IMG/VR virus record: IMGVR_UViG_3300043811_000165
Location: 1 to 59,868 of that record
Length of the DNA: 59,868 nucleotides
Direction: 5' to 3' (one strand)
Origin: a virus
Lineage: Duplodnaviria > Caudoviricetes
Position 1 is the first letter of the stretch. Each line of letters opens with the position of its first letter. Below are positions 968 through 23,658 of the stretch, piece after piece. The notes beneath the pieces are model-generated. The model did not search any database. It worked only from the letters and a program-made list of their open reading frames with translations, and was not told the origin of the DNA. Made by a program: the position numbers and the translations under genes.

Positions 968-1402
968 TCATCCGGCTTGTGGCTTCGCTTCCGATTGTTT
1001 CCGTTCGACCAGGAGAAGTTTTAGTTCGACCTGGGACAAGCGCGCATCGACATCGATCATTGCCCGTTTTACTTCGGACGCCACAAATCGCGGAAGCCGG
1101 TCCCGTAACTTCCCGAACCCAGCGCCGTTATGATGAAAGTCGTCTTTGCATTGCTTCGAATGAAACATCTGATTGACCTTGATCTGCTTAAAGATCACCG
1201 GGCAGTTTTTACAGCGTACGGTTTTCAATTCCGGGTTCTTGGGAACTCGTTTGCGCGCGCTGTGACGCTTCGCCGCCGCTTTTGGGGTGCCTGACATAGC
1301 CTCCAGCCTAACACAACCCGTAGCGCTCACGCAAACCAGCGCCACGGCAGTTTTAAAACCAGCACGGGCATTTAGTTTCGGTAAATATTTCCATTTAGCC
1401 AT
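968..1402 (-). CDS. Hypothetical protein with Zn-finger-like motif; C-terminus encoded by a repeat
   Basis: CKNC...HSKQC motif; ends LLLVER..EAKPQAG inside the repeat. Confidence 0.5.
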   Translation of the reverse strand: MAKWKYLPKLNARAGFKTAVALVCVSATGCVRLEAMSGTPKAAAKRHSARKRVPKNPELKTVRCKNCPVIFKQIKVNQMFHSKQCKDDFHHNGAGFGKLRDRLPRFVASEVKRAMIDVDARLSQVELKLLLVERKQSEAKPQAG

Positions 1403-3512: not shown

Positions 3513-4071
3513 AAATACCCGGACCGTTTTCAGTCGATCCAGGTTAGAGTTTCACTTCGGAGGAATTTTCTTTGCGGGGATAGTGTAGACGATGTTTTGG
3601 CCTCCGTCAAGTCCGGTCTTGCGCTTCAGTACTGGATCGCCCGACCAGGAGGGGGTTTGGGAGCCGGGTACACGAAGCGGATCGGAAACCAGTCGCACGT
3701 CGTGTTGGTCGAGATCTCTTCGCCGATGAACTTCCGGCAGAATCCAAAATGCCCACAGGTCGAACAAGTTTGGCCCTCAGGTAGTTTCTTCGTCGAATAA
3801 AATAACTATCAGAGCCGTTGCGTTCTCTGCGGGTACCCGAAAGATGCCCACTTGTCGGATGGTCGTTGTTCAAGGGATGTAGTGTTGGTCGCTGTGACTC
3901 ACAGCGCCGCTCCAATTTCGATGTGCCGCCAGTATTGATCGATCCAAAACCGACCGCGCCACGACACGCCCCATGCGGATCTATTCCTGAACTCGATGTG
4001 TGCGAACCAATCGATGTGCGCCGCTTCGAATCTTTCCAAACGATTGATCGACTGATAGGCCGGTTCGTAAG

Positions 4072-5001: not shown

Positions 5002-5211
5002 TCATCGCTGGCACCTCGGACACAATACCACCGGATCGTCGTCTTCGTCGAATGCGGTTTTGAACTGCCAGCCGGATCTGGTTGCCGCAGTGTCTGCTTC
5101 CCGGATGTTTTTGAAACTGGATATTTCTTTTGAATCAGCGTGACGCGGTTCGCCGTCTGAGCCCAAGAAGCGCCGGCATCTGTCGCAGCCTATGGAGATG
5201 GAGCCTTTCAT
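5002..5211 (-). CDS. Small Zn-ribbon-like phage protein
   Basis: CDRC...GW...LCPRC; ATG right after a repeat RBS. Confidence 0.65.
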   Translation of the reverse strand: MKGSISIGCDRCRRFLGSDGEPRHADSKEISSFKNIREADTAATRSGWQFKTAFDEDDDPVVLCPRCQR

Positions 5212-6633
5212 GATTTGGCCTCAGTCTGCTCCGCACTTCGCGTCGGATTCGGATCGTTCGACCAGGAGAGAGGCCCGAGACAATTCGGACCAGAAATGGT
5301 CACAGTTGGCCACGTAGACCGGGGAAAAGTTTCGCTCATGTTCTGCAATTTGTTTATCGAGCGCATGGACCGGATCTTCATCCGGCAGCCCGCAACGCAG
5401 GCACCTGTGATCCTCGCCCTCCCGGACGTCAGCAACATGCGGCATCGTCATCCAAAACCGCCATTGCCGGTTGTCCGCCAAAACCTCTCCTGGTCGAACA
5501 GTAGAGACTGCGGGCGACGACTGTGTTCGAAATGTTTCCTTGATCGTTTCCGCAATCTGATCGATCATTCTCGATCTGAATCCTCCCGGGCATGGACGGT
5601 CTGGATTGGGGAACCCGCCATATATTTTGTGCGCTGCTGCGTAGGCGGCGACTTCCAACTGATAGGGGGTCATGGTTTGGCCTCGCCCGGTTGTGCGGCT
5701 TGTTCGGGTGTGGACTTCTCGACAGCGCCCATGTGTCTGCTGGCCATGGTGACATCGAAACTTGCGCTTACACACTCTCCAGGTCTTAGGACGATGGAAG
5801 GTTTGAGCCCTCGCCGCGCTTCTTCTTCTCTGAGTACCTCCATCATATCGCGCGCTTCGTTCGCCACCGCATATTTGCGCAGGGCGCGTTCGATCTGAGT
5901 CTCACTGAAACCTGTTCCAGCCCATTCTTTTCTGCCCACCAACAAAAGCCACCTTTCGAACCCCAGTGGATTTTTCCCATACCCGCCGTAGATGCTTCCG
6001 TTGTGTGATCCGACCGCGCAAGCCAGCAACCAGGGGCTGAGTTTCGAAGTGATTTGTTCTGCGTTCTGGGGTACTCCTCCTGATCGAACGGAATCGTACC
6101 GACGCACAAGCCACATGCCGAATGAGGCTAAAATATTGCGCATTTAAAACCTCCTCTGTTCCGGCAACTCATCAAAATAAGTTCTGATGTCGTAATCGCA
6201 AAGCGGTGTTCCATCTTCCTGGACCACCCGCAAGCGATCCCCCACCACAAGCGCACGCCCGGCGAGAGAACGGCGCATCCACTGGTCGAAACTGGTCCAA
6301 TCCTCCGTGACGATCATCGCCAGAGTGAAAAAGAGCAGGCAGGTTGGGAAGATCTGCAAAAATACGTCAAACATGGGGTTCCTCGATTGCCGAAAGAATC
6401 CGGCGCCGGATGCGAAGGAACCGCGCGTGCCGGTCTTCGTAGCCGTAGATCATCTCGATAAATCCGATGCAGAAGGGAAACGCGATCAGAAAGTCGATTA
6501 ACATGCTGCCTCCAAAACCATCGTACGCCTGACCGGTGTTTTGGTGAAATGGAGCGGAGGTACTGTTTTCGGGCGGGATTCGCCTTAGGGCTGTTTCTAA
6601 GGTGTCTGGTACTCACAGATCTTCAGTACTGTA

Positions 6634-6662
6634 TTGACGCGGGGCAATTGTTTCACTACACT
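6634..6662 (+). promoter_or_regulatory. Sigma70-type promoter
   Basis: TTGACG-N17-TACACT at a strand switch, upstream of the long + strand gene array. Confidence 0.6.
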
Positions 6663-6736
6663 ACGGATTCGCTATATTGGCCTCATCGCAGTCGGGTTCT
6701 TCAACCGAAGCATTGAGCGTTCGACCAGGAGAAGTT

Positions 6737-7336
6737 TTGGAACAAAAACGAAGAGGCGACTGGATTCAAACCTTCACTGGGCTTTCGATGTTCCCCCTTG
6801 ATCCGCGACTCGAAGAGATCACGATTGAGGATATTGCCCATGCTCTTTCGAACATTTGCCGGTTCACCGGGCACGTTCGTACTTTCTATTCAGTCGCTGA
6901 ACATTCGGTGCGCGTGAGCTGGGCTTGTGAAATTGAAAACGCGATGTGGGGTCTTCTCCACGATGCGTCAGAGGCTTATCTGTCGGACATCAGTCGGCCG
7001 ATGAAACGAACTTCTGATTTCGGCAAACTCTACATGGAAGCCGAACAGGTGTTGATGTCGACGATCTGTGCGAAGTTCGGCCTGCCTCCAGAATGCCCCG
7101 CCGACGTGAAGCTGAGCGATAACCGGATGTTGGTTACTGAAAAACGAGATCTCTTAGGACCATGTAACCGGCAGTGGGAAAAACAGGATGTCGCGGTCAA
7201 GCCGTATGAAGGACGGATCATTCCGCAGAGCCCGGAGACGGCAGAGCGTCTTTTCTTAGAACGATTTCGTCAGATCGGTACAAAACCTCTCGTGGTCGAA
7301 CGCTCTAAACCCGAAGTGAAAACTGAATCCGAATGA
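6737..7336 (+). CDS. HD-domain phosphohydrolase (YfbR-like 5'-deoxynucleotidase type), carried between inverted repeats
   Basis: DIAHALSNICRFTGH..YSVAEHS..LLHDASEAY; TTG start after the repeat AGGAG; stop inside the closing repeat. Confidence 0.85.
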   Translation: MEQKRRGDWIQTFTGLSMFPLDPRLEEITIEDIAHALSNICRFTGHVRTFYSVAEHSVRVSWACEIENAMWGLLHDASEAYLSDISRPMKRTSDFGKLYMEAEQVLMSTICAKFGLPPECPADVKLSDNRMLVTEKRDLLGPCNRQWEKQDVAVKPYEGRIIPQSPETAERLFLERFRQIGTKPLVVERSKPEVKTESE

Positions 7337-7346
7337 GGCCAAATTA

Positions 7347-7601
7347 ATGAGTGCATCTTTACGCTACAACCCCGAACACACAGCATTTGAAGTAACCGTC
7401 GGAGACAATGTATGGGCGCAGGAGATCGACGCCAACGACGAATCGGTCATGCTCCACCACGACGGCGGCTGCTACGTGGTCACGATGGATGACGCGCAAC
7501 TCGAAGGACTGGACCCGAACGCGGTTTATGAACTGCGGAAAGTCACCACGGTCGTCAAGCCGGATGGAGAATTCGAATACGACAAGTTGGATGCGAACTG
7601 A
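7347..7601 (+). CDS. Hypothetical acidic protein
   Basis: Fills the space between two repeats. Confidence 0.7.
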   Translation: MSASLRYNPEHTAFEVTVGDNVWAQEIDANDESVMLHHDGGCYVVTMDDAQLEGLDPNAVYELRKVTTVVKPDGEFEYDKLDAN

Positions 7602-8004
7602 TATGTTGGCCTCATCGAGCAGCGAGGGACGCGCACCTGAAAGCGTTCGACCAGGAGAGGAAACTGTCGAATGGACGCGGCTTAAAAACGGGTCCTGGTT
7701 GGGATGCTCCGGCTCTCAAATACTTTGTATCGTCGACAAACTCGAGGATTTTCCGGTAGAGGGATGGACCCCTCAATGCTTCCGGGATGTGTTCACCACT
7801 CCCGAAGCCGCGATGGTTGCAGGAGAACTGCTGTTACGATCCATCCGGCATCAACAGGAGGAAACGACCACGCCTCCGATTTCGTGGGTGGATATTTATC
7901 TCCCAATTCTGAAAAGCGTTGTGGCCGCGCTTGAAGACAAGTCGCTCCTGGCCGGGCGCTCCACGTCCAACGAAACCCAAAAGCCGACGGAGGCCAAATC
8001 ATAA

Positions 8005-8154
8005 ATGCCTCTGGACATCGAAACCATCGTCGATCAATCGGTACTACGGTTCAAAACCTCCCTCGGCTGGAAAGCTTCCTTCATCGACCCGGAAGACGTG
8101 GAGAATTACAAGGCGGAAATCAGGCGGGTGATTAAGGAGGCACGCAAACCGTGA
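8005..8154 (+). CDS. Small hypothetical protein (49 aa, not in ORF track)
   Basis: MPLDIETIVDQ...EARKP; ATG after a repeat, TGA just before the next repeat. Confidence 0.55.
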   Translation: MPLDIETIVDQSVLRFKTSLGWKASFIDPEDVENYKAEIRRVIKEARKP

Positions 8155-8524
8155 TGCCGCTGGCCTCATCGCAGTCGAGTCTTCGCGTTGGGCATCCTGC
8201 CGTTCGACCAGGAGAGGCCGTAGATCGCCCGCTCACATTCAAACCGGGACATCTCGGGAGGGGCGGAGAATTGTTGCTGCTCGGGCGGCGAGACAAATTG
8301 TGTTCGGAGTGCCACAAACCATTCGTCTCGGCAACAGCGAACCAAAAAACGTGTACTCCGGAATGCTCCGAAGCCCGCGAGAAACGAATGAAAAAAGCGT
8401 CGAGAACCCGCGAACGAGTCAATCGGAATCTGCCCAAACCAAAACGCGGTCGTCCACCAAAGGCGCTCCTGGTCGAACGGAAACCGCCGATGCGCAGCAC
8501 GCTGCCGAATGAGGCCAAAACAAA

Positions 8525-8917
8525 ATGCCGGTAGCGCTCACCCGCCATCTACCGGGCAAAGCCACGATGCGCGACGAATTCGGACAGGTGCGTTTCGAAT
8601 ATGGCATCGTCGCCGAAGTTGGCAAAGATTCTATCTTGATCAAAACCGGCTCGAAGGAAATCGGGCAGGCGGTAGATCATGGATATCTCCGGCTCATCGG
8701 GGAAACGTACATTTACTGGTGTCCCAAATGTCAGACCAACGTATGGGAAGTAGAGCGGCTACGATCGCGGGGTGCTTGCCCGCATTGTAGTCAGGGGCTC
8801 TGGGCGCTACAGGCTGGAGATCGGGTAAGGCTTCATTACCGGATATCCGTAGGAAAGAATGCCGAAGGGCAGATTGTTTCAGGCGGGGGAGCGTGGTGGG
8901 GAGAGAAGGTAGTTTGA
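8525..8917 (+). CDS. Hypothetical protein with Zn ribbon
   Basis: CPKC...CPHC; fills the inter-repeat space. Confidence 0.7.
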   Translation: MPVALTRHLPGKATMRDEFGQVRFEYGIVAEVGKDSILIKTGSKEIGQAVDHGYLRLIGETYIYWCPKCQTNVWEVERLRSRGACPHCSQGLWALQAGDRVRLHYRISVGKNAEGQIVSGGGAWWGEKVV

Positions 8918-8983
8918 TGATTTGGCCTCATCGGGTTTGAGGCTTCGACCGGAGTTTTGATCGTTCGACCAGGAGGGGTTTTT

Positions 8984-9184
8984 GTGAAGCGCAAAACAAG
9001 ATTCAATATTATCCGAGCTTTGGAGTTTACGTGCGGCTGGATCGGAGGCCGTTACTTTCATGACGACTGGAGATTTATTCTAGTCCTGATTCCGTTCGCA
9101 ATAGTGTTTGCATATCTGCTCAGAGTCCCAGAACCACTCCTGGTCGAACGCTCCGAAACCGACGCGCAGACCGTTTCCGACTGA
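8984..9184 (+). CDS. Small membrane protein (cassette cargo)
   Basis: GTG after AGGAGG; one TM; ends in a repeat. Confidence 0.55.
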   Translation: MKRKTRFNIIRALEFTCGWIGGRYFHDDWRFILVLIPFAIVFAYLLRVPEPLLVERSETDAQTVSD

Positions 9185-9193
9185 GGCCAAAAC

Positions 9194-9691
9194 ATGGAAC
9201 CCATCACACCCCTAGAACCCCAAAACTTCAGCCTCCCGCCCGGCCAGCGCGGAACCGAAACAATGAACCCCGACTCAGTCGAATTCGTGGATCACAAAAC
9301 CATCGCCGCATTGAACGGAATGCCGCCGGGCGAGACTGCCGAGAAACTGACGTTCCTTGAAAAAGAGTGGGACGACTGGACCGTCGACAATGCGCACGAT
9401 GTTGAAGTATGGCCGATCGAAGCATTCCGCATCCTTCGACTTCAAGTCCGCGAACTGGCCTTGGCCTACTCAACCGAAGTCGCCGGCAAGCGGGCGCTCG
9501 CAATTCAGGCGGACATCGGCACAATGCACATTGAGAACCAGCGACTACAAGCGCAGTTCCGCAGGTTCATGCAGCAACATTTCGAGGAAGATGTTCTGAA
9601 CGGAGAAGGCCGGAATCTGACTATTTTTGAGATGGCGCAGGATATCATGCTTCGAGCAAAGCCGAAGTGGTTTGAGTTTTGGAGGCGATGA
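9194..9691 (+). CDS. Hypothetical protein
   Basis: Fills the inter-repeat space; C-terminal KPKWFEFWRR. Confidence 0.7.
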   Translation: MEPITPLEPQNFSLPPGQRGTETMNPDSVEFVDHKTIAALNGMPPGETAEKLTFLEKEWDDWTVDNAHDVEVWPIEAFRILRLQVRELALAYSTEVAGKRALAIQADIGTMHIENQRLQAQFRRFMQQHFEEDVLNGEGRNLTIFEMAQDIMLRAKPKWFEFWRR

Positions 9692-9755
9692 TGGTTTGGC
9701 CTTTTAGCGCACGGTGGCTTCGGGGTGCAGTCGTGCGTACGACCAGGAGGGGTTT

Positions 9756-9980
9756 ATGAGCACATCCTGGACCAACCTACACGGCTATTGGGCTTTTTCG
9801 GTTTACGGAGTAGAGCGTGGTAGCGTTTCTAGAATCTTTAGGAAGGTCGGCGGTGAGGGCTACATCGCAGAATATGAAGCATTCGTAAAAGGTCAGTTTG
9901 ATTCCCTCCGCGATGCAAAGGTCGCTGTCGAGAAGGCCCATGCGGAACAAGCCGAAACGACGAACGAGGCCAAAACATGA
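9756..9980 (+). CDS. Hypothetical cargo protein
   Basis: ATG after AGGAGG; ends EAKT with ATGA overlap. Confidence 0.65.
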   Translation: MSTSWTNLHGYWAFSVYGVERGSVSRIFRKVGGEGYIAEYEAFVKGQFDSLRDAKVAVEKAHAEQAETTNEAKT

Positions 9981-10153
9981 CCTGCCCCGCCTGCATCGTT
10001 CAGCGATTTCACTCCGCTGAAGACTGGAACAATCATCCATTGGCCGGTCACGGCTACACCCGCGAACAAGGCTGGTCGCACCCCGATCTGAAGGCCGCTG
10101 TCGAGAAGGCCAAAGCCGAACAAGTGGCAGTGTCGAACGAGGCCAAATCATGA
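9977..10153 (+). CDS. Small hypothetical protein (58 aa, not in ORF track)
   Basis: MTCPAC...EAKS; ATGA overlaps at both ends. Confidence 0.6.
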   Translation: MTCPACIVQRFHSAEDWNNHPLAGHGYTREQGWSHPDLKAAVEKAKAEQVAVSNEAKS

Positions 10154-10497
10154 ACCCCATGGGGCGAACAATCCCGGTAAACCCGGAGCAGATCAAAAAC
10201 GCAATCATGCTGATTGAAGCCAAGATCGGAATGCAGCAGGAAAAACTCGCGGCGCTGACGAAGCATTCGGACATGACCCGGCGCCTCGTAACCTATCTTT
10301 CGCGCTACATCACGCACTCGCCCGAGAACGTCACACCTGGCCCGGTAAGCCTGTGGATAGGCACGCATCAGCAGCAGGAGAAAGCCGAGCGCTCCGTGAT
10401 CGAGGTGCAGATCGCGGAACTTAAAAGCCAACTTGCGGTAAACCAGTTTATACTGGAAGAGGCTCAGAATCAGGGATCGGGATTGATCACCAATTAG
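10150..10497 (+). CDS. Hypothetical coiled-coil protein
   Basis: ORF between repeats. Confidence 0.65.
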   Translation: MNPMGRTIPVNPEQIKNAIMLIEAKIGMQQEKLAALTKHSDMTRRLVTYLSRYITHSPENVTPGPVSLWIGTHQQQEKAERSVIEVQIAELKSQLAVNQFILEEAQNQGSGLITN

Positions 10498-10701
10498 CCT
10501 CATCGGACAGGTGGCTTCGCGTCGGATGTGAATCGTTCGACCAGGAGTAGGTTTGGTGGAACACGAACATTGGGTTTGGATTCTTTTAGGGGCATTGGTG
10601 GCCGCGCCGATCTGGATCGTGTTCGGGATTGTGCTATGGGTCAAGTGGATAGGCAGGCGGCTGCATGATCTGTTTCGCGACATGATTTTGAACTGGCCAA
10701 A

Positions 10702-10974
10702 ATGGACATGAAAACCTTCAACTTCGCCGATGTTCCGCAATTCGCGTTTGACCGGCTGATTGAACAGGTGAAAGGTCACGGGGTCGAATTCTTCGCGTCC
10801 AGATCCGGTAATGAGATTCTGGGAACCTTCCGATCCGATGCGGGCGCCGGATCGTTCGCTTACGACGGCCAGCGATTGAGCGTGACGATTATTCACGATC
10901 GGGGAGATTTTCCTTCGCTGATGATCACAGGCGGGCTCCGTCAGCTCGTTCAGGAAGCGGTAGAGCGAGTGTGA
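10702..10974 (+). CDS. Hypothetical protein
   Basis: ORF track; co-oriented with neighbours. Confidence 0.55.
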   Translation: MDMKTFNFADVPQFAFDRLIEQVKGHGVEFFASRSGNEILGTFRSDAGAGSFAYDGQRLSVTIIHDRGDFPSLMITGGLRQLVQEAVERV

Positions 10975-11146
10975 AGCGGTTACTCAACATTCTGCGTCTC
11001 GTTCTGTTTTCTCCGTGGTTTATCGCAATCTGGATCATTTACGTGAGCCGGATCGTGTGGATTGTGGTGGAGATGAAAATCATGAATTGGCCTCATCGCA
11101 GTTCGATCTTCGCGCGGAGTTCGCCCCGTTCGACCAGGAGTGGCTT

Positions 11147-11371
11147 GTGAGCAATCCAGACGATGATCGCAGGCACGATCCAGTCAAGCCCGAGCACTAT
11201 CAGGGAGATTACGTCATGCGGATCATCGAAGATTTTAAATTGGATTTCCTCAGCGGAACCGTCATCAAATATATTCTGCGCGCTGGCAATAAACCGGGTG
11301 ATTCAACTGTTCAGGATTTAAAGAAGGCGAGATGGTACATCGATCGCAAGATCTCGAATCTGGAACAATGA
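11147..11371 (+). CDS. DUF3310-type phage protein
   Basis: DPVKPEHY...F..G.VIKYILRAG.K....QDLKKARWYIDR; GTG after the repeat RBS. Confidence 0.85.
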   Translation: MSNPDDDRRHDPVKPEHYQGDYVMRIIEDFKLDFLSGTVIKYILRAGNKPGDSTVQDLKKARWYIDRKISNLEQ

Positions 11372-11604
11372 CTCCCGGAAAAGATGGACGAGCCTTCGAC
11401 ATGGAACGATGGCTAAGATGGGCGTCTAATCCAACTTCGCGTCCCCGGTTGAAGTTCAATCGCGAACAGGAGCCCGTCGCCCGAGGAATCGCAAATAGGA
11501 AAACCATGAAACGGAGCGGCAATATCCGCAAACCCTGTCCTGATTGCGGAAGGATGAATCATATTTCGCAAAAAGTATGTAAATGCGGGCGTTCGATGAA
11601 ATAG
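11368..11604 (+). CDS. Small basic Zn-ribbon protein
   Basis: CPDC...CKC; ATGA overlap. Confidence 0.5.
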   Translation: MTPGKDGRAFDMERWLRWASNPTSRPRLKFNREQEPVARGIANRKTMKRSGNIRKPCPDCGRMNHISQKVCKCGRSMK

Positions 11605-11714
11605 TGTTCCTCCTGGTCGAACGCGATCAAGGCCGCGCGCGGCCTCAAGTACCATTGAGGCCAAAACAAAATCGGTACTACCCTTAAAATCAAACTTCTG
11701 ATACACTCGCTTCC

Positions 11715-12335
11715 ATGGCATTAGGACTCACCTTCTCAAACGGCAAACCGGCTTCGATGGCCCGCGGTAAATACCAGACGCGTAACAACCGGCTGGTGGA
11801 AATCACCGGGCATCGCACAGTCTCAGGAAGCACAGGAACTGTCTCCTGGACCAAAGTCGTTTGGGATGGAGTGCTGTACCAGGGCGATCAGAAAACGGTC
11901 GAATCACATGCCACCTGGTCGAATGAAGGCGGGTATCTGCATCAGGAAGGGGTAGGGAACCAACTCGACTTGATGACAGTGATTACGCAGGAGGTGGAGC
12001 CCGAGCCGGCGGCATTCCATAATGATCCCGCAATTCTCGAACATCAGATCGTGCTCGCGGCATTATGCAAGGACTTGATTCGGCAACAGGTCGATCAGGA
12101 AAATGTGGTCGAAACATTGAAGCGCATCATCGACGAACGGGACCGCGCGGAAAGCGAACCTACCGAAGTTGCGGAGAAAGCACATGCGTTCGATGAACTG
12201 CTGCTCATTCTCTCCGAGCAGGCAGGAACGGAACATGCAGGCGAACATCCAAGCATAACTCTCCAGCGCATCATTGGACAACGGGATACGGCACAGCGTC
12301 AGGTTGCGGCGCTTCTCAAAACTCCGGTAGTCTGA
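11715..12335 (+). CDS. Hypothetical protein
   Basis: 206 aa ORF between repeats. Confidence 0.7.
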   Translation: MALGLTFSNGKPASMARGKYQTRNNRLVEITGHRTVSGSTGTVSWTKVVWDGVLYQGDQKTVESHATWSNEGGYLHQEGVGNQLDLMTVITQEVEPEPAAFHNDPAILEHQIVLAALCKDLIRQQVDQENVVETLKRIIDERDRAESEPTEVAEKAHAFDELLLILSEQAGTEHAGEHPSITLQRIIGQRDTAQRQVAALLKTPVV

Positions 12336-12429
12336 TTTTATGTCGGCCTCATCGCAGTCGGGTGCTTCGTCTGAAGTTGGGAGCGCTCGACCAGGAGAGG
12401 GGCTTTCTGGACTCGACAAAGTAAAACGA

Positions 12430-12999
12430 ATGATGGTGAACGGGTGCGTTTTCTGTTCATCGGCCGCGATTGAAGGTTCAACGTTTTGTCGAGAGCATTT
12501 GTGGATTGAAGTAAAAGACGGCAATCTTCAAGCGCGGGAATTATTCGGACGACACTACACCTACCGGAAAAGTCGTGACCAGATATCGCTATTCTGGCAG
12601 CGGAACCGCAATTACAATCTGATCGCCGGTCCTGGTGAAAAACTCCTACTGTTAAACCCTCAGGCTCTGTTCGTTTGGCGGAAGTTTATCAGCATGGACC
12701 ATCAGGAAGGCGTCAATTGTGCAGTGTTCCGCAACGAAGGACCGGTGCTTTCGTCGGAACTGATTCGCGAAGCTGATCGGATTGCGTGGCAGCGTTGGCC
12801 CGGCGAACGACTGTACATCTACGTCGATGCGAACAAGACCCGACGCAAACGGGACCCCGGCCGCTGCTTTCTTCGAGCAGGTTGGAATTATTGTGGTACG
12901 ACTCTGAAGGGTCTTCTGATTCTGGAAATCAAACCAGAACCTCTCCTGGTCGGGCGCTCTACGCCCCACGAAGCCGCGAAGCCGACGGAGGCCAAATAA
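12430..12999 (+). CDS. Phage protein, possibly Mom-like/GNAT-fold DNA modification enzyme (start uncertain)
   Basis: RHY..GPGEKLLL..CAVFRNEG..LSSELI..YVD..PGRCFLRAGW pattern. Confidence 0.5.
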   Translation: MMVNGCVFCSSAAIEGSTFCREHLWIEVKDGNLQARELFGRHYTYRKSRDQISLFWQRNRNYNLIAGPGEKLLLLNPQALFVWRKFISMDHQEGVNCAVFRNEGPVLSSELIREADRIAWQRWPGERLYIYVDANKTRRKRDPGRCFLRAGWNYCGTTLKGLLILEIKPEPLLVGRSTPHEAAKPTEAK

Positions 13000-13661
13000 T
13001 GCTAATAGGCTTAGCCTCAACCCCCTCCATCCAGCAAATGATCATCACCGCCGCAAACCAGTACGGCGTACCTCCCTCGATCGCTCTTGGAATCGCAGCG
13101 CACGAATCCGGATTCAATCCCAACGCCACCAACGTCAATCCAGCGACATCTACAAGTCCGTCGACCACAGACTACGGTGTGATGCAGTTGAACACATCCG
13201 TTTTGCAGACTTACGGACTCACCCCGGCACAGGCCTACGATCCCCAAACAAACATCGACACGGCGATGCAGTTGCTAGGAGGCTACATTTCGAAGTACGG
13301 TAACATCGACACGGCATTGCAGGCCTATGCGTCAGGACCGGGCACGGTGGCCTCTGGCGCGGCGCCCAACGCGACGGCGGCAAGTTTTATATCCTGCGTA
13401 ACAGCATATCCGAATTGTCCAGGAGTCGCACAGCCGGATCCCAGTATCCTCGCGTCATTGTCCGATTCGTCGGATTCTTCTGCGGGAACAGTTACAACGG
13501 CATCGATGCCCGGCTCGGATATATTCACAACTGCATTCACTGATCTGGGAGCTGCGTTTTCCTCAGGCGACTTCTCGGGGATGTCTGGATCTGACTGGCT
13601 GGTAATTGGTGGGGGGGTGGCGTTGGTGGTGTTTCTGGGGTTTAAGGTTGCGAGGGGTTGA
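12999..13661 (+). CDS. Lytic transglycosylase (SLT) with C-terminal membrane anchor
   Basis: AANQYGV..IAAHESGFNPNA..DYGVMQL..DPQTNI..ALQAY; C-terminal TM plus basic tail. Confidence 0.9.
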   Translation: MLIGLASTPSIQQMIITAANQYGVPPSIALGIAAHESGFNPNATNVNPATSTSPSTTDYGVMQLNTSVLQTYGLTPAQAYDPQTNIDTAMQLLGGYISKYGNIDTALQAYASGPGTVASGAAPNATAASFISCVTAYPNCPGVAQPDPSILASLSDSSDSSAGTVTTASMPGSDIFTTAFTDLGAAFSSGDFSGMSGSDWLVIGGGVALVVFLGFKVARG

Positions 13662-13671
13662 TGGGTTAGCC

Positions 13672-13944
13672 TCAGTCGGATTGAGGATTCGCGTCAGTGG
13701 TTGAGCGTTCGACCAGGAGGGGTTTTAGCAGACCACCGGCCACCAACCGCCCGTACGCTTCCTTATACTTCGACTCCGCGCGCGGGTACGATTTATCGGA
13801 AACCATCAGAATAGGTTCCATCGCCGTGTCGCTAACATAGCCGAAGAGTTGCCAGCCGGTATCGAACAGGAGCACATGCGGTTCCAGCAGCGGGCAGGCG
13901 GCGCGGAGGAGCTGGCACTTCACGTTGTATTCTTCGATGGTCAC
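13672..13944 (-). CDS. Hypothetical protein
   Basis: Ends inside a repeat (LLVERS...). Confidence 0.55.
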   Translation of the reverse strand: MTIEEYNVKCQLLRAACPLLEPHVLLFDTGWQLFGYVSDTAMEPILMVSDKSYPRAESKYKEAYGRLVAGGLLKPLLVERSTTDANPQSD

Positions 13945-14285
13945 TCGGAATAGACCTTCACTCCCATTAATTGCACAATGAAGCGCGGCCGTTTCCTACC
14001 GATGTTTAGATCGTCAGGCAACGAGACGGCAAAGCGGATGACCTCGGATGGTCCGTATAATTTTGCGGGCACCAATGGCCACGGGAATTCGTCGAGATTT
14101 ATCCAGTGCAATTGAAGGTCGCAGAATTTGAAGCGAATCGGCCCGGTTGTCGTCGTATGGTGAATGGCCTGCAATTCGTAGGGCGCATCGGCGTCGATAG
14201 TGATGTCGAACTGAACCTGTCGGTTAATCCGGTTTGTGAAGTTACCCTCACAAGTGTAGAAATGATGATGTCGGAGGGTGCTCAT
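13941..14285 (-). CDS. Divergent paralog of the small capsid-like protein 43429..43878
   Basis: ITIDADAPYEL/SIQTDADFYL, PAKLYGPSEVI/PAHLFPAGSKI, LMGVKVY/FKGIKLY. Confidence 0.6.
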   Translation of the reverse strand: MSTLRHHHFYTCEGNFTNRINRQVQFDITIDADAPYELQAIHHTTTTGPIRFKFCDLQLHWINLDEFPWPLVPAKLYGPSEVIRFAVSLPDDLNIGRKRPRFIVQLMGVKVYSE

Positions 14286-14764
14286 GCGGCCCTCTGCTGG
14301 CCGATCAGCACCGTGATCGCGAGGCACTTGATAGATTCCTCGGAGAACCTCACGGTGTAGCCAATCGCCGTTCCATACTGCTCCGCTTCCTTCGCCGCCG
14401 CAATCGCGGTCTTCAGCGCGGCTTCAAGTTGCGTCGTGACGTGCGCTGGCTTGCGCTCTGGCGCGGCTGAAGCGTTCGCCGGGACTTCGGCGGGCTTGCG
14501 CTCTACCTTCCAGTCAAAACCACGCTGGCCGTTGCGCGTGGCCTTTGTGAGCAGGAACGGCTGGCCGGGCGCGAGGGTGAGGGACTGGATTTCCTTGCCC
14601 ACTTCGAGCGGCACGTACATGCGGGAGTGGTTTGCGAGCGAGAACAGCATTTGCGGGCCGTAGTTGCCGCGCACTTCGATGCCGTTGGGGGAGGCCAAGG
14701 TAATTTCGTGCGTTACGTTCGGCTCTGGTTTGAAGATGGACGAATTGGGAGTGGAGGCGGTCAT
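14282..14764 (-). CDS. Hypothetical protein
   Basis: ATG after a repeat RBS; 160 aa. Confidence 0.7.
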   Translation of the reverse strand: MTASTPNSSIFKPEPNVTHEITLASPNGIEVRGNYGPQMLFSLANHSRMYVPLEVGKEIQSLTLAPGQPFLLTKATRNGQRGFDWKVERKPAEVPANASAAPERKPAHVTTQLEAALKTAIAAAKEAEQYGTAIGYTVRFSEESIKCLAITVLIGQQRAA

Positions 14765-15297
14765 GCTTTGGCCTCCGTCGGCTCTTGCGGCTTCGTGGGG
14801 CTTTGTTCCGCCCGACCAGGAGAGGTTTGGAGTTGTCCCTGTGCTTTGAAGATCACGGCTGTGGCTTTGGCGACCAGCGCGAGGCCTTTTGGATCATCTC
14901 CGACGTAGGCATGTGCAAACGCGGTCATCGTCTGTAGGGATTCCAGCAGCTCCGGCGCGGCGGCGATCAGGTGGGCGTTTGCGATTTCATCCGGCTCCCA
15001 GTCTTCGAGCGCGGGACCGATTTCGCAAATAGTGAAGCCGAAGGAGTTGAGTATCTCTACTTCAACTTCGGCGTCGAATTGTCCCTCGATGCGCCAGGGT
15101 CCAAGTGTATGCGACGGCATTATGCGGCCTCCCGTTCTTCCATCCCCAGAATGGCTTCGTAGCGGTTGATCTGAACGCGCAGCGTGCGGAGTTGCATGTT
15201 TCGCGAAGTTCAGTTGTGAGCGCAGGCTTTTGATGTCCAAATGCAGATCGTCTATTTCCCGCGCTGTTTCCAGTTTGTCGATGGTGGCTTGTTCCAT
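14761..15297 (-). CDS. Phage protein of the HT.GPW...ANAHLIAAAPELLE type
   Basis: Motif common in phage accessory proteins; true start may be 15120. Confidence 0.65.
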   Translation of the reverse strand: MEQATIDKLETAREIDDLHLDIKSLRSQLNFAKHATPHAARSDQPLRSHSGDGRTGGRIMPSHTLGPWRIEGQFDAEVEVEILNSFGFTICEIGPALEDWEPDEIANAHLIAAAPELLESLQTMTAFAHAYVGDDPKGLALVAKATAVIFKAQGQLQTSPGRAEQSPTKPQEPTEAKA

Positions 15298-15500
15298 GAA
15301 TCAATTATCCACAGTGGATAAGTGTGTGGAAATAGATCGGGAGTACTGAAAGAGAAGGAGAAATGCCTTATGGCGTTCTAGGTACTTCCGGTTCATCAGT
15401 TCGCTTCTCATAGCAGGTTTGGCAGATTCCGGGACGCACCTTCGCTTCTTTTGAGACTGGTTTTCGTTTGTCGCAGTCGCGGCAGATGAAGTGGTAGGTT

Positions 15501-16067
15501 TTATTTTTCTTTGGCCTCATCGGAGTTCTCGACTTCGCCGGGTTGTGGTGCGTTCGACATGGGCGATTCGGCGGCTTCGTCCGATTCTTCCATCCGGGTT
15601 TGGATATAGGTCAGACGCCGTTTTGCCTCATCCAATTGAACTTCGGTCAACGGCCGCATCATTGCCATGGCCGCGCCGAACGCGTAGTTTTCTTTCTCGC
15701 TCAATTGGTCCATCGCCGCAACCGCCTCCTCAAGACGCTGCACCTGAAGTTGCGCGGCCATCAGGTCTTCAACGCTCGGCTTGGGCGGTTTCCACGAAGA
15801 GCCATGTTCGCGCTGTTTGAGCATCTGGGCAAGGTGATATTCCACGCCTTCACAAAGAAAATCCCGTAACGCGCCGTGAAATTGTTCGAGTACGGTCCCG
15901 ACGTTTTCAAGCCCCATCCGGTCAATCGCCGTCTGGTGGATAAAGCAGGGCATGACGCGCCATGTCGATTCCGCGAGCCGTTCCCGTAATTTGATCGCTT
16001 CCCGGCAGTGCTTCTCTTGGGCGTCGAAGTCCGGAGACTGCGGATAAAATTCTGCTCCTTCGATCAT
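15501..16067 (-). CDS. Hypothetical cargo protein
   Basis: ATG after the AGGAGG of a repeat; ends EAKEK at the closing repeat. Confidence 0.65.
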   Translation of the reverse strand: MIEGAEFYPQSPDFDAQEKHCREAIKLRERLAESTWRVMPCFIHQTAIDRMGLENVGTVLEQFHGALRDFLCEGVEYHLAQMLKQREHGSSWKPPKPSVEDLMAAQLQVQRLEEAVAAMDQLSEKENYAFGAAMAMMRPLTEVQLDEAKRRLTYIQTRMEESDEAAESPMSNAPQPGEVENSDEAKEK

Positions 16068-16157
16068 AAACCCCTCCTGGTCGAACGCTCGAAATCCGAC
16101 GTGAAACCACATGCCGGATGAGGCCAAAAAATAATTGTTTCGCTTTTCACACCATCC

Positions 16158-16439
16158 ATGGTATACAGGTATACAGATTTAAGCAAGACGATATTTTGGC
16201 CTCATCGGGCTCTCGAGTCTTCGAAAGAGTTTTGGAGCGTTCGACCAGGAGAGGGACTGAAGGAAAACCGATTGCCGGAACCGACCGTTCAAGCAACATT
16301 CAACATGCCTCCCGAGCTGTACGAACGCCTGAAGGCGCAAGCTGCAACCGAGGGCACGTCGATGCGCGAGATTATGGAAAACGCGTTGAAAAGTTATTTC
16401 GCTCAAGCTGAGAACGGGTCGCAGGAGCGCGGCGCATGA
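16158..16439 (+). CDS. Ribbon-helix-helix DNA-binding protein (start uncertain)
   Basis: ATFNMPPELYERLKAQAATEGTSMREIMENALKSY. Confidence 0.75.
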   Translation: MVYRYTDLSKTIFWPHRALESSKEFWSVRPGEGLKENRLPEPTVQATFNMPPELYERLKAQAATEGTSMREIMENALKSYFAQAENGSQERGA

Positions 16440-16663
16440 TCCTGAACGTAGCGCAATACGCGATTTCCAATTCGCAAAAACGAAAGCCTTCGATTCCCAA
16501 GAAACAATATCCGTATCAGGGGCAAATGTTCAACATCGTGGAACTCTCGAACATCACCAGAATTCTTCCTGCGACGATAAAAGATCGCATGTATCGTCAG
16601 CGAATGACGATGGATCAGGCTCTAGAACTTGGAGTCAGAGGTCGCGGAGGCCGAAATGGTTGA
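16436..16663 (+). CDS. Small HTH-like DNA-binding protein
   Basis: YQGQMFNIVELS..ATIKDRM..MTMDQAL. Confidence 0.55.
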   Translation: MILNVAQYAISNSQKRKPSIPKKQYPYQGQMFNIVELSNITRILPATIKDRMYRQRMTMDQALELGVRGRGGRNG

Positions 16664-17813
16664 GCACGTTTTGCAACATCCGGATGTGCATCGGCCTTGG
16701 GCTTCGTGGTCCGAAGACCAAACCCTCCACGTCGCCGTCTGCTACTCAAATCCCTTCCGCTGGAGAACGCGCCGCGAACTCGCAAACGACTGCATCCGGC
16801 ACCTGGCAGGATCGGCCAACGTAAAACTCTATATCGGAGAACTGGCCTACGGCGCGCGGCCGTTCGAAGTGACGGAGGGTCAACCCTACCAACCGGAACC
16901 TGAGTACGATCCAGCCGATGGTTACCGACAGTATGAAGCCAAACGCCGCCGCAATCCGCGAACGCGCGGGATAACCAACATCCAACTGCGCACGACCTGT
17001 GAACTCTTCCACAAGGAAAACATCCTCAACCGGGTGATTCAGCAATTCCCGGCCAACTGGAAGTACGGTGCCTACGTGGATGCGGACTTCCACCTGACGC
17101 GCCACGACTGGGCGCTCGAAACTATTCATCAGCTGCAGCACTACGATTTCGTGCAGCCTTTCAGCACGTACACTGATCTCTCAGGAGAAACCTATGGAAC
17201 CGGACATCTCCCGCTCCGGCACAATGCCAGCTTCGCCTTCACCTACGTGCAAAACGGCTACCGTCTGTCTGCGGGTTTCAGCAATGGTGGATGGAGAACT
17301 CCGGCAGGAGCGGATCATTATTACGGGGCCATTGCTGGACCACGAGGAGTGGGGGCAACTGGCGGAATGTGGGCCTTCCGAAGAACAGCTTTCGATACGG
17401 TTGGTGGCCTGCTCGATAAGTGTATCTTGGGTCACGGTGACTGGTTCATGACCTTCGGTCTGGTGGGCGAAGAGGCCCCGGACATGCATATCGACGGCTA
17501 CACGGACGATTACCGGAAAGCGATTGTCGCCTGGCAGAACAATGCGGCGAAGCTCAAAAAGAACATCGGGTACGTGGACTGCCACGCGATCCACCACTTT
17601 CACGGCTCGAAAACGAAACGGGCATACTCCAGCCGGGATCAGATCTTAGTGCGAAACAAGTTTGCACCGACCACGGACCTGCGGCCGGATTACCAGGGAA
17701 TTTATCAGTTGACGGCGGATAAGCCGGCGCTGAGGGATGACATCAGGCGGTACTTTATTTCAAGGTCAGAGGACGATCCGAATTTGTATGGAAGCGAGGG
17801 GTCGTTGGTCTGA
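16656..17813 (+). CDS. Putative GT-A fold glycosyltransferase
   Basis: FHKENILN..YVDAD DxD motif, GGMWAFRR, HHFHG. Confidence 0.65.
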   Translation: MVEHVLQHPDVHRPWASWSEDQTLHVAVCYSNPFRWRTRRELANDCIRHLAGSANVKLYIGELAYGARPFEVTEGQPYQPEPEYDPADGYRQYEAKRRRNPRTRGITNIQLRTTCELFHKENILNRVIQQFPANWKYGAYVDADFHLTRHDWALETIHQLQHYDFVQPFSTYTDLSGETYGTGHLPLRHNASFAFTYVQNGYRLSAGFSNGGWRTPAGADHYYGAIAGPRGVGATGGMWAFRRTAFDTVGGLLDKCILGHGDWFMTFGLVGEEAPDMHIDGYTDDYRKAIVAWQNNAAKLKKNIGYVDCHAIHHFHGSKTKRAYSSRDQILVRNKFAPTTDLRPDYQGIYQLTADKPALRDDIRRYFISRSEDDPNLYGSEGSLV

Positions 17814-17880
17814 TGATCTGGCCTCAGTCAGCATCGGTCTTGCGTGTGGACGCTCTACCGTTCGAACAGGAGATGTGTTT

Positions 17881-18237
17881 GTGAAATACCGAAAGAAGCC
17901 GGTTGTGATCGAGGCTATTCCATGTAAAGCGGCGATTCAGCACGCTGGGTCAAATTGGAAAGTATTGCCGAAGTGGTTTCGCGATGCCTACGAAAAAGGT
18001 GGTATGGTCATCGCACATAACGCCATCATCATTCCCACGCTTGAAGGAAAACTGAGAGCCGATCCTGACGACATGATCATCTGCGGCGTGAAGGGTGAAT
18101 TGTATCCTTGCAAACCCGACATTTTTGCAGCAACCTATGAAACCATCGCAATTGAAAGCGAAGGTTTATCTCAAATGGTCGCTGTCGAGAACTCTGAAGC
18201 CGAACAAGTCGAAAAACAGAACGAGGCCAAACCATAA
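17881..18237 (+). CDS. Conserved phage protein (YRKKPVVIEA / PGDYG-like family), cassette cargo
   Basis: KYRKKPVVIEA..IPTLEG..DDMIICGVKGELYPCKPDIFAATYE. Confidence 0.85.
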   Translation: MKYRKKPVVIEAIPCKAAIQHAGSNWKVLPKWFRDAYEKGGMVIAHNAIIIPTLEGKLRADPDDMIICGVKGELYPCKPDIFAATYETIAIESEGLSQMVAVENSEAEQVEKQNEAKP

Positions 18238-18488
18238 TGCGAAACATTTCCACAGTAATCAACCAAATCCTACTCATCCTGGCAGGAGCAACCATTCAGC
18301 CAGCAGATCAGGACAACATCACTACGTTGCAAGCCGAACTGCGGATCATTCTGCGGCGCGCAGCTTACAACCCGCCGGAGGCCGGGAACGTGCTTTGGCT
18401 GTCTCTGGCAACCACTCTCTATCGGTATCTGCCTCCAGCTTCAGGCGGCGGTTATCCCGCGCAGATCTCGGCCATCGTCACGCAATGA
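18237..18488 (+). CDS. Hypothetical protein
   Basis: TAATG coupling to the upstream gene. Confidence 0.55.
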   Translation: MRNISTVINQILLILAGATIQPADQDNITTLQAELRIILRRAAYNPPEAGNVLWLSLATTLYRYLPPASGGGYPAQISAIVTQ

Positions 18489-18751
18489 ACCGGGTCGTCA
18501 TTACTTTGTGGGTCGGAGCCGCAATCCTGATCGGTTGCGCAGTCGGGACATGTTTTCCCGCGGATCAGGAATACGCGCTGGCGCTCGCGAGCCCCGATAA
18601 ACCCACCGTGATGATTGGTATTGTTGCGGTGGGGCTGAACAAGGTGCAAGCCGAAGGCGCGGCAGTGCAGTTGAACAGAACGTTCGAGAAACAGTCAATA
18701 CCTGTGGTCGTGTGCGCACGGCCACGGATTGACATTGGAAATTACAAGTAG
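18485..18751 (+). CDS. Hypothetical exported/membrane protein
   Basis: ATGA overlap; N-terminal hydrophobic segment. Confidence 0.5.
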   Translation: MNRVVITLWVGAAILIGCAVGTCFPADQEYALALASPDKPTVMIGIVAVGLNKVQAEGAAVQLNRTFEKQSIPVVVCARPRIDIGNYK

Positions 18752-18821
18752 GACGATGGGTTGGCCTCATCGGGCTTGCGGCTTCGCGGGTACGGTGTAG
18801 CGTTCGACCAGGAGAGGGATT

Positions 18822-19136
18822 TTGCGATATCGAAGACGGCGGCGGATTGCCAAACTCACGGATGAACAGAAGATGCTCGAATACTATGCGGATCGCGCCG
18901 GTATCCGAGCCTCGGTAATAGTCATCGGCGTTGCAGAATCCTTCCGTAGACTTGATTCTTCGAAAGACCTGGAACTTCTGCAATCGATCGTTGATAACGA
19001 TCTCGAACCTGCAATAAAGTTGTCCGAACGCACTCAAGCCGATCTTGAAGCCTCGTTCAGCAAACGATCCAAACCTTCTCCTGGTCGAACGGTAAAGACC
19101 AAACGCGCAGCCAAAAAGCCGATTGAGGCCAAATAA
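18822..19136 (+). CDS. Hypothetical cargo protein
   Basis: TTG after the repeat RBS; ends EAK. Confidence 0.55.
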   Translation: MRYRRRRRIAKLTDEQKMLEYYADRAGIRASVIVIGVAESFRRLDSSKDLELLQSIVDNDLEPAIKLSERTQADLEASFSKRSKPSPGRTVKTKRAAKKPIEAK

Positions 19137-23594: not shown

Positions 23595-23658
23595 TTTTGG
23601 CCTTTTAGGGCCGCGTGGCTTCGTGGCTGGTTTGGTGCGTACGACCAGGAGGGATGTT

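Follow-up and report, generated by a model that had tools for sequence, protein, structure and literature searches.

Inverted repeat arms with Shine-Dalgarno-like motifs bound variable genes in a soil virus genome

Genes and repeats at the focal site

We analysed the genome of a tailed-phage-type virus (Caudoviricetes; IMG/VR record IMGVR_UViG_3300043811_000165, rated 100% complete), taken as one window of 59,868 nt that covers the whole record, and a ~65–70-nt repeat that recurs along it. Copies of the repeat, here called arms, mostly stand in inverted pairs; the genes that a pair encloses are called cargo, and the genes outside are called backbone. At positions 8917–9691, two arms flank a 66-codon open reading frame (ORF) and carry Shine-Dalgarno (SD)-like motifs before both this ORF and the backbone gene that follows it. 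Four related viral contigs, G1 to G4, serve for comparison. The features of the site are as follows:

8525–8917, + strand: upstream backbone gene, which starts at the outer end of arm 8453–8522 (68.8% amino-acid identity to G1)
8917–8986, + strand: forward arm in the upstream role, type A (nhmmer E = 4e-18)
8971–8986, + strand: inner initiation region, comprising AGGAGG, a 7-nt spacer and GTG 8984 (predicted SD duplex, -10.8 kcal/mol)
8984–9184, + strand: 66-codon cargo ORF that encodes a hydrophobic segment
9125–9195, - strand: reverse arm in the downstream role, type A (nhmmer E = 1.4e-16)
9182–9196, + strand: outer junction, where the cargo TGA (9182–9184) overlaps GAGG (9183–9186), followed by a 7-nt spacer and ATG 9194
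9194–9691, + strand: next backbone gene, 165 codons, conserved in two relatives (66% amino-acid identity to G1)

The TGA of the upstream gene (8915–8917) lies 3 nt before TTTGGCCTC. The forward arm consists of an outer box TTTGGCCTCA, a middle GGCTTCG and an inner box CGTTCGACCAGGAGG, and it ends in CGACCAGGAGGGGTTTTTGTG. The last ~17 codons of the cargo (PLLVERSETDAQTVSD) are encoded by the reverse arm, and its stop is the TGA within TGAGGCCAAAACATG. The G1 ortholog of the 9194–9691 gene is likewise preceded by GAGGCCAAACC-ATG. The cargo itself matches no Pfam or PHROG family, in scans that covered 40 query ORFs, and has no homolog in G1 or G3. The anatomy that a sequence-only reading had described for 8922–9196 was thus borne out at the level of sequence.

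Anatomy of the repeat family

In the window, nhmmer finds 62 copies of the arm, 32 on the plus strand and 30 on the minus strand, and this one repeat family makes up about 7% of the genome. The inner 10-mer CGACCAGGAG, with at most one mismatch, matches 64 times where 4.45 matches are expected, and the outer 8-mer TTTGGCCT matches 46 times where 1.86 are expected. When 160 near-full copies, drawn from three genomes, are aligned, two sharply conserved boxes stand out in each arm, the outer box TTTGGCCTCA and the inner box GCGTTCGACCAGGAG, with a variable filler of ~40 nt between them in which GCTTCG forms a weak box. Arm orientation mostly alternates along the genome (+, -, +, -), and the inner ends of a pair, which point towards each other, are 31 nt to 1.8 kb apart and mostly enclose one to four genes. 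In the three genomes, 59 adjacent plus/minus arm pairs bound units in this way as terminal inverted repeats, and six pairs of the window form 'empty' units of ~145 nt.

The upstream-role arm, defined relative to local transcription, is nearly always of the canonical type A, while the downstream-role arm is of type A, type B (inner box CGCCCGACCAGGAGA, outer box GGAGGCCAAA) or type C, which has only the outer box in common. In types B and C, the inner SD is weakened or lost. The upstream arm ends in CGACCAGGAG(G)-GGTTTT-(G/T)TG, that is, AGGAG(G) followed by a built-in GTG, TTG or ATG, and the downstream arm ends in (T)GAGG/GGAGG-CCAAAnn-ATG. For many cargo ORFs, the start codon built into the upstream arm is the first codon.

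The arms also adjoin the stop codons of neighbouring genes. The stop of the preceding gene lies 0–5 nt from the upstream arm; among 161 arms, 27 have the stop of an ORF of at least 40 codons ending exactly 4 nt before TTGGCCTC, and 74 have one within -9 to +15 nt of it. The last cargo ORF runs through the downstream arm and either stops at the TGA of the arm or overlaps the next ATG (ATGA/TAATG). Across downstream arms, the three reading frames are represented 56, 39 and 37 times (a noisy count over all arms); there is no single frame, and thus the arm-encoded tail is not one conserved peptide.

The relatives came from viral contigs that were scanned both by pattern and by protein, and ORFs for comparison were chosen by their conservation in these relatives:

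G1: 58.1 kb, complete, 43 arm copies by nhmmer
G2: 12.2 kb, fragment, 11 arm copies by nhmmer
G3: 63.1 kb, complete, 71 arm copies by nhmmer
G4: 16.5 kb, fragment, two arm copies by nhmmer

G1 and G3 are collinear with the window at 65–85% nucleotide identity. Arms occupy orthologous gene junctions in G1, G2 and G3, and two arms that are seemingly absent from G1 are present there as degenerate orthologous copies, indicating that the arms are old and evolve with the genome. G4 has only a diverged form of the arm, with 12 exact outer boxes, a different inner box and the canonical inner 9-mer in no copy. Its upstream arms (e.g. G4r 12184, 10596, 7360 and 1439) carry GCTCGACAG-GGGAG, which is similar to what the window has in type C and partial arms (15508, 34986, 42074 and 48591).

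Predicted start signals at the arm ends

Ten inward and fourteen outward starts had been listed by the sequence-only reading, and all of them exist. The inward starts follow GGAG after a 5–9-nt spacer and open ORFs of 52–242 codons; the outward starts open ORFs of 84–652 codons, with a spacer after GAGG of 7 nt in 12 cases and 8 nt in two. A start opening at least 40 codons is found inward at 21 of 57 full arms (p = 0.006) and outward at 23 (p = 0.001), a modest excess over a high background of spurious ORFs (21.5% at random positions). In particular, an ATG 7–11 nt past GAGG opens at least 40 codons at 19 of the 57 arms, where 2.8% is expected (p about 1e-15). The motif counts and the 7-nt ATG spacing rule out an artefact of chance or of a compact genome. 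TTG/GTG belongs to the repeat consensus, and many copies carry a TTG or GTG that opens nothing.

Nearly half of the ORFs conserved in relatives (24 of 53) start at an arm end, 20 at an outer and four at an inner end, a start being counted if it is in frame and within the first third of the conserved ORF. Orthologs of window genes with an outer-arm start keep the arm start in 9 of 17 cases in G1 and 13 of 18 in G3, and orthologs of arm-free window genes have an arm start in 4 of 21 and 7 of 24 cases, respectively; orthologs thus switch between an arm-borne start and an ordinary ribosome-binding site (RBS). Arm-free genes of the same virus show GGAGG or GAGG at similar spacing. The arm-specified N termini of cargo and backbone proteins also fit family profiles. 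Specifically, residue 4 of the serine recombinase opened by ATG 31852 aligns with position 1 of the Resolvase profile, residue 4 of the cargo opened by ATG 30921 aligns with position 5 of phrog_2600, the cargo opened by TTG 6737 matches phrog_318 (1e-61) from residue 2, and the cargo opened by GTG 17881 matches phrog_419 from residue 1. The ORF opened by ATG 28757 begins with MKRLFLIVLL, a signal-peptide-like N terminus.

Calculation of RBS strength for each copy, which the sequence-only reading had put forward as a check, shows stronger predicted SD pairing at used than at unused ends. With 161 arms of the window, G1 and G3 and the canonical anti-SD, which may not be that of the host, mean pairing energies are -8.78 versus -7.85 kcal/mol at inner ends (p = 0.01) and -8.08 versus -6.01 kcal/mol at outer ends (p = 4e-8), a difference that largely reflects role-specific arm subtypes. 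Taken together, the sequence data support the view that an SD-like motif, canonically spaced from the starts of real genes, is present at each of the two ends of the repeat family.

Polarity of arms and cargo

The claim that each repeat is a bidirectional initiation module, inserted in either orientation, stands in part: both ends of the family bear an SD-like motif, but neither bidirectionality of the single copy nor insertion in either orientation is supported. ORFs of at least 40 codons are present at both ends in only 7 of 161 arms from three genomes. Cargo is co-directional with the next gene in all 14 callable cassettes (nine plus/plus, five minus/minus, none opposed), the arm subtypes are polarised relative to transcription, and no inverted orthologous cargo is found between the window, G1 and G3. 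An invertible segment of the Gin/Hin type, driven by a serine invertase, was rejected on the same ground, cargo not being seen in both orientations. Among public runs, a single one contains the window sequence, a soil metagenome of DNA contigs that is probably the source sample, and no RNA run is listed. Compared with 6500–26400, the contigs of this run yield only arm–arm cross-matches within the genome and no joint at an arm, rare rearrangements being invisible to contigs.

Cargo turnover at fixed slots

Genes outside arm pairs are mostly conserved among the relatives, whereas genes inside are often unrelated, absent or moved. At slot 8917–9195, similar arms enclose three unrelated cargos, of 66 codons in the window, 77 codons in G3 and 121 plus ~78 codons in G1. 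All three begin at the arm GTG 7–8 nt past the SD, and the cargos of the window and G3 end in the arm-encoded tail. In the G1 slot, the first cargo ORF ends in a repeat of the last ~25 nt of the backbone gene orthologous to 8525–8917 (G1r 54020–54045 and 54430–54455), which looks like a flank duplication left by an insertion.

Other slots differ in whether they are filled. At junction 47853, the window has no element (TGAGTG; 47851–47853), G1 and G2 have different armless small genes (G1r 30813–31017; G2r ~10230–10560), and G3 has a full armed cassette (G3r 35437–35944), in which a type B arm gives GGAGGCCAAAAC-ATGA to the conserved downstream gene and ATGAA stands on both flanks. Unit 56333–56480 is empty in the window and G1 and holds a ~570-nt gene in G3. 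The gene at 41572 starts after GAGGCCAAA-nn-ATG in three genomes, each with different upstream content. Furthermore, the cargo at 33404–33901 lies in another slot in G1, where the arm beside it is 86% identical to the window arm of the same slot and 76% identical to the window arm beside the cargo. These slot comparisons indicate that an exchange of cargo leaves the arms, or at any rate their outer halves, in their slot.

A proposed role of the arms as boundaries of gene cassettes

Our favoured reading, at a probability of about 60%, is that a small clade of soil viruses has a gene-cassette system whose boundaries are the arms formed by the ~65–70-nt repeat, with SDs and start codons in the arms that stay in place as cargo turns over. 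It builds on the observed anatomy and spacing of the arms, their conservation across relatives, the turnover of cargo at fixed slots and the stronger SDs at used ends. Ribosomes that translate the operon would terminate 0–5 nt before the upstream arm, and translation of the cargo would be initiated by the AGGAG(G) of the arm and its built-in start codon. The end of the cargo ORF would coincide with the downstream arm's SD, follow it closely or overlap the next ATG; with the cargo stop on or beside this SD, ribosomes could initiate or re-initiate on the next gene. The next backbone gene would start 7 nt past GAGG, by re-initiation or by fresh initiation. Judged by this layout, ribosomes probably do start at arm sites, and an insertion would be non-polar.

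Cargo could be gained, lost or replaced between fixed arms while cargo and downstream gene keep their start signals. Since each pair carries starts for the enclosed and the next gene, genes may be swapped without silencing their neighbours. As to how cargo moves, replacement may occur by recombination inside the arms, either homologous recombination over short homology or recombination by the conserved serine recombinase. More tentatively, the arms could form a virus-borne, integron-like platform, serving both as recombination sites (for the serine recombinase or for short homology between co-infecting relatives) and as translation adaptors, with box pairing in the mRNA relaying coupling across the cassette. 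If so, any accessory gene placed between two arms would be expressed and the operon would stay intact.

Several observations weigh against arms acting as translation adaptors for exchangeable cargo. No copy is convincingly used both ways, the four two-ended arms of the window involving antisense or overlapping ORFs, and 46 of 161 arms use neither end. At a threshold of at least 100 codons, inner ends (8 of 57) are barely above the 8.8% background, and the pairing energies depend on an anti-SD that may differ from that of the host. The outward ATGs at 2900 and 24448 lie in a frame other than the one conserved in G3, and at about a third of upstream-role arms (by reading, not by a formal count) the cargo starts farther downstream on a signal of its own. 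Armless gene insertions at the same junctions mean that arms are not needed for insertion. In addition, both boxes are equally conserved in roles that exclude SD action, such as the outer box of upstream arms and the inner box of downstream arms, so that translation is not the sole constraint and a second one must exist. Candidates for what keeps both boxes in both roles would be a recombination-site function, concerted evolution or RNA pairing.

Phage genomes are mosaic, and the harmless entry of genes into tightly coupled operons is poorly understood. The repeat family marks junctions of differing gene content and supplies the start signals of about half of the genes that are conserved. Should the arms work in the way read here, they would constitute a natural plug-in standard, with a fixed expression interface and exchangeable cargo, and would provide a concrete, testable mechanism for moron-like gene turnover. 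Engineers would also gain from them a compact translation adaptor that works in both directions. Long-range translational coupling is a further question for which the arms are a suitable test case.

Alternative explanations

The SD content of the arms would also follow if they functioned at the RNA level as a coupler or attenuator. Pairing of the outer boxes would mask the SD of the next gene, pairing of the inner boxes would mask the SD of the cargo, and translation of the preceding gene, by bringing a ribosome to its stop 0–5 nt from the 5′ box, would unwind the closing helix and expose the SD of the next gene. An outer:outer closing helix containing the SD of the next gene, together with an inner:inner helix, is predicted for the RNA of all six empty units (z-scores -1.3 to -5.2, five of the six at or below -2.5). 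Together with the preceding stops that abut the 5′ strand (27 of 161 arms at exactly 4 nt before TTGGCCTC, 74 at -9 to +15 nt), this fold makes a ribosome-opened coupling device conceivable, and it would account for box conservation in non-SD roles. However, the variable regions of partner arms are 0.466 identical versus 0.495 for non-partners and show no partner-specific complementarity, and box duplexes are no more stable for partners than for non-partners. On reading the sequences, outer-box G/A variants are uncompensated in the partner, and the partner of a type C downstream arm is mostly a type A upstream arm although type C has no inner box. Helices spanning 0.2–1.8 kb of translated cargo are doubtful as well, and we regard the RNA-level explanation as unlikely. 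A structured RNA element formed by the single arm was rejected, there being no Rfam match and no conserved single-arm fold (alifold 0.0 and -0.27 kcal/mol, 160 copies).

It is likewise improbable, in our judgement, that the arms are the terminal inverted repeats of non-autonomous elements, some with captured cargo, resembling miniature transposable elements with inverted repeats (MITEs), moved in trans by a transposase or recombinase and inserting at ATGA-type stop/start junctions with the RBS as a secondary feature or by-product. Inverted pairs with outward-facing ends, the 'empty' units of ~145 nt, the empty and filled states of junction 47853 with ATGAA flanking the G3 cassette, and a conserved serine recombinase gene among the arms all fit such a family. 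The copies, however, are old and diverged (60–90% identity to the reference copy), orthologous copies have decayed in place, and partner arms are not more alike than non-partners (0.466 versus 0.495). Polarity relative to transcription is strict, and the arms are bound to their slots while the cargo changes. A clear flank duplication is seen only once; elsewhere the arm flanks read (C/G)ATG-n, which may equally be part of the repeat or a functional stop/start. The Pfam/PHROG scans of the 40 query ORFs revealed no transposase family. Furthermore, a pattern scan of the genomes of 185,579 species, one per species, gave only single matches in unrelated taxa among the matches listed; for a pattern of 18 fixed bases this is close to the chance level, and the matches listed thus point to no host-borne family.

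Least probable of all is that the arms are binding sites of a viral or host DNA- or RNA-binding protein, like the stoperators of cluster A mycobacteriophages or nucleoid or packaging sites, and lie near starts because the genome is compact. Two sharply conserved boxes ~40 nt apart, with variable filler and a weak middle box, and a conservation that is independent of coding role would suit a bound protein. Such a protein would not explain the uniform 7-nt spacing to ATG, the built-in start codon, the role-dependent SD strength or the cargo ORFs fused exactly to the start codon of the arm.

Transcription signals were also considered and, over 40000–59868, rejected. In that part, sigma-70 promoters are not enriched (6 sites versus 8.4 expected, with a consensus that may not be that of the host), and neither are intrinsic terminators (25 sites versus 22.9 expected). 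One terminator-like stem (54925–54902) ends at the edge of arm 54836–54898, and no other listed site overlaps an arm.

Other arms and genes of the window

Besides the two arms of the focal site, the window holds the following copies, given with the strand of the arm; the strand of a start is given in brackets where it is minus.

962–1028, +: arm; outer ATG 957 (-); the last cargo ORF, 968–1402 (-), stops at the TGA of the arm
2834–2901, -: arm; outer ATG 2900 (+); the frame conserved in G3 starts at 2910
3592–3662, +: arm, type B-like; inner TTG 3657 opens 47 codons (putative)
5210–5271, +: arm; outer ATG 5211 (-)
5474–5531, -: partial arm
5669–5724, +: type C arm (outer box only); outer ATG 5673 (-)
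6072–6136, -: arm; neither start used
6674–6744, +: arm; inner TTG 6737, dNMP phosphatase cargo of 199 codons (phrog_318, 1e-61)
7277–7346, -: arm; outer ATG 7347
7601–7665, +: arm; built-in start not used
7937–8002, -: arm, type B; outer ATG 8005
8161–8224, +: arm; neither start used
8453–8522, -: arm; outer ATG 8525
9691–9763, +: arm; inner ATG 9756
9920–9982, -: type C arm; outer ATG 9977
10093–10158, -: type C arm; outer ATG 10150
10493–10561, +: arm; inner TTG/GTG 10553/10556
11082–11154, +: arm; inner GTG 11147, DUF3310 cargo (Pfam, 3e-10; 76% identity to G3, same slot)
11603–11668, -: arm; neither start used
12339–12406, +: arm; built-in start not used
12932–13000, -: arm, type B; outer ATG 12999 of the SLT lysozyme-like gene, with a TAATG overlap
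13662–13733, +: arm at a convergent junction; minus-strand ORF 13672–13944 stops at the TGA of the arm
14763–14828, +: arm, type B; outer ATG 14764 (-)
15508–15558, +: partial arm, TTCGACAT variant
16061–16131, -: arm; inner ATG 16067 (-), 188 codons
16191–16261, +: arm; neither start used
17813–17885, +: arm; inner GTG 17881, phrog_419 cargo
18160–18235, -: type C arm; outer ATG 18237
18757–18824, +: arm; inner TTG 18822 (cargo 70% identical to G3, same slot)
19066–19135, -: arm; outer ATG 19137
22768–22834, -: arm, type B; outer ATG 22836
23594–23659, +: arm; inner TTG 23659, 242 codons
24380–24449, -: arm; outer ATG 24448, not in the frame conserved in G3
25252–25320, +: arm; inner GTG 25317
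26610–26676, -: arm; outer ATG 26678 followed directly by TAA; likely gene start ATG 26694
28689–28758, -: arm, type B; outer ATG 28757, ORF beginning MKRLFLIVLL
30316–30463: empty unit of a type B arm, a 32-nt spacer and a type A arm
30853–30923, +: arm; inner ATG 30921, phrog_2600 cargo
31784–31853, -: arm, type B; outer ATG 31852 (serine recombinase)
32445–32515, +: arm; inner start opens only 11 codons
32791–32858, -: arm without an outer start
33337–33409, +: arm; inner GTG 33404, phrog_11912 cargo with a homolog in another slot of G1
33905–33970, -: arm; no outer start within 14 nt
34926–35039: back-to-back reverse and forward arms
36542–36687: empty unit at the convergence of plus and minus operons
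37809–37864, +: type C arm; outer ATG 37813 (-)
37943–38015, -: arm; inner GTG 37950 (-), 46 codons
39969–40024, +: type C arm; outer ATG 39973 (-)
40460–40528, -: arm; inner start opens only 4 codons
41568–41623, +: type C arm; outer ATG 41572 (-), ATGA overlap
42074–42127, -: partial arm, CTCGACAG variant
42645–42700, +: type C arm; outer ATG 42649 (-)
43358–43429, -: arm; inner GTG 43364 (-), 58 codons
43870–43906, +: type C arm; outer ATG 43878 (-)
44144–44214, -: arm; inner ATG opens an 8-codon ORF before the gene start at 44101; degenerate ortholog in G1
45881–45917, +: partial arm, type B
48591–48641, +: partial arm, TTCGACAT variant
51650–51796: empty unit; outer ATG 51648 (-)
53350–53499: empty unit; outer ATG 53351 (-); 5′ box adjoining the upstream stop
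54751–54898: empty unit; outer ATG 54752 (-)
56333–56480: empty unit; outer ATG 56334 (-); the same arms in G3 hold ~570 nt of cargo
58810–58880, +: arm; inner GTG 58875

Unit 36542–36687 lies exactly where the plus and minus gene blocks converge, so neither of its ends precedes a gene start. Beside arms 2834–2901 and 24380–24449, long overlapping ORF pairs lie in different frames (2900–3547/2910–3512 and 24299–25252/24448–25188), and the arm ATG opens the frame that is less conserved in G3; a frameshift, an assembly error or a different start could underlie these pairs. At arm 26610–26676, the outward ATG and TAA form a start-stop mini-ORF (26666–26696), an arrangement that is the same in G1. 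The likely start of the 676-codon gene behind it, ATG 26694, lies 10 nt past the TAA of the mini-ORF and opens a signal peptide, and an SD of its own is not evident.

Matches to known families are few among the proteins of the window:

1565–2581: replication initiator (profile match)
12999–13661: SLT lysozyme-like gene (profile match)
31852–32502: small serine recombinase (Resolvase, 1.2e-38)
33950–35077: HerA/FtsK-type ATPase (profile match)

A C5 methylase-like ORF and a glycosyltransferase were matched as well, and backbone genes have almost no PHROG matches. Several cargos belong to families common among tailed phages, namely the dNMP phosphatase of phrog_318 (6737–7336), DUF3310 (11147–11371), phrog_419 (17881–18237), phrog_2600 (30921–31631) and phrog_11912 (33404–33901). 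The cargo protein of 23659–24387 is a distant paralog (~29% identity), seen through G1 and G2 orthologs, of the 44343–45041 protein, the best conserved of the minus-strand operon. The minus-strand neighbours 41740–41883 and 43042–43188 share an N-terminal segment of ~48 residues, both end in type C arm tails, and both match one and the same G1 ORF at 86–90% identity. The 59,868-nt window contains no tRNA gene and no Rfam family; a megablast of 19000–30000 against GenBank phages gave no match, and 38015–39973, used as a protein pattern query in viral contigs, found no relative.

Comparison with known systems

In the main texts of the mostly non-subscription literature, we found no published description of these motifs (the predicted downstream start motif being written as GAGGCCAAAnnATG) or of paired RBS-bearing arms in a virus. 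The nearest known system is the SAS/ESAS repeats of cluster K mycobacteriophages, 13-bp sequences that contain AGGAG, lie 3–7 bp before starts, often of unrelated genes, are conserved across related phages, carry an upstream inverted-repeat extension in half of the copies and are of unproven function (PMC3203893). Both are phage-specific, SD-containing repeats near the starts of many genes. In the portions of that paper considered here, however, SAS have a single orientation and accompany non-structural genes only, with neither inverted pairs around cargo nor an outward second start signal, whereas the arms span 65–70 nt and occur in both orientations.

Dispersed repeats of bacteria come close in other respects. 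Neisseria REP2 and the Borrelia IR carry a promoter, an RBS and an ATG directly upstream of genes (PMC3184786). An RBS and ATG borne by a dispersed repeat are found in the arms too, but REP2 and IR, as the sections consulted portray them, are promoter-bearing, one-way and chromosomal or plasmid-borne, with no cargo between inverted copies. MITEs that affect RNA or translation include Correia/NEMIS and ERIC. Correia/NEMIS and the in-frame RPE repeats are treated in the same source as elements of ~100–150 bp with terminal inverted repeats in transcribed intergenic regions (PMC3184786). To judge from what that account covers, the arms resemble them in unit size, inverted ends, ORF fusions that extend the 3′ ends of genes, and the existence of empty as well as filled sites, and differ in being separated by whole genes, diverged, polarised and equipped with start signals at both edges. 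In addition, target duplication is not seen as a rule at the arms, and no transposase was seen in the 40-ORF scans.

Integron gene cassettes form arrays of promoterless accessory genes with imperfect palindromic sites (attC/attI), and their translation signals come partly from the platform. Both systems have fixed positions, marked off by imperfect palindromic sites, at which the cargo varies, but the cargo of the arms lies inside the palindrome, between its halves, rather than as an ORF with one attC palindrome, slots occur all along the virus genome, and the sequence of the arm is unrelated. The general scans of 40 ORFs, which included no dedicated search, showed no IntI-type tyrosine recombinase, the sole recombinase being the serine enzyme. 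The morons of lambdoid phages are accessory genes between two backbone genes with a promoter and terminator of their own. Like a moron, an armed unit is an inserted gene, flanked by backbone genes, whose presence differs between relatives; unlike a moron, it brings translation adaptors and appears to rely on transcription of the operon. MITEs, integron cassettes and morons each share single features with the arms, but the arms fall outside what defines each of them. RBS-bearing repeats are a known kind of element; what looks new here, from the genomes compared, is their embedding in an apparent cassette system of a little-known clade of soil viruses.

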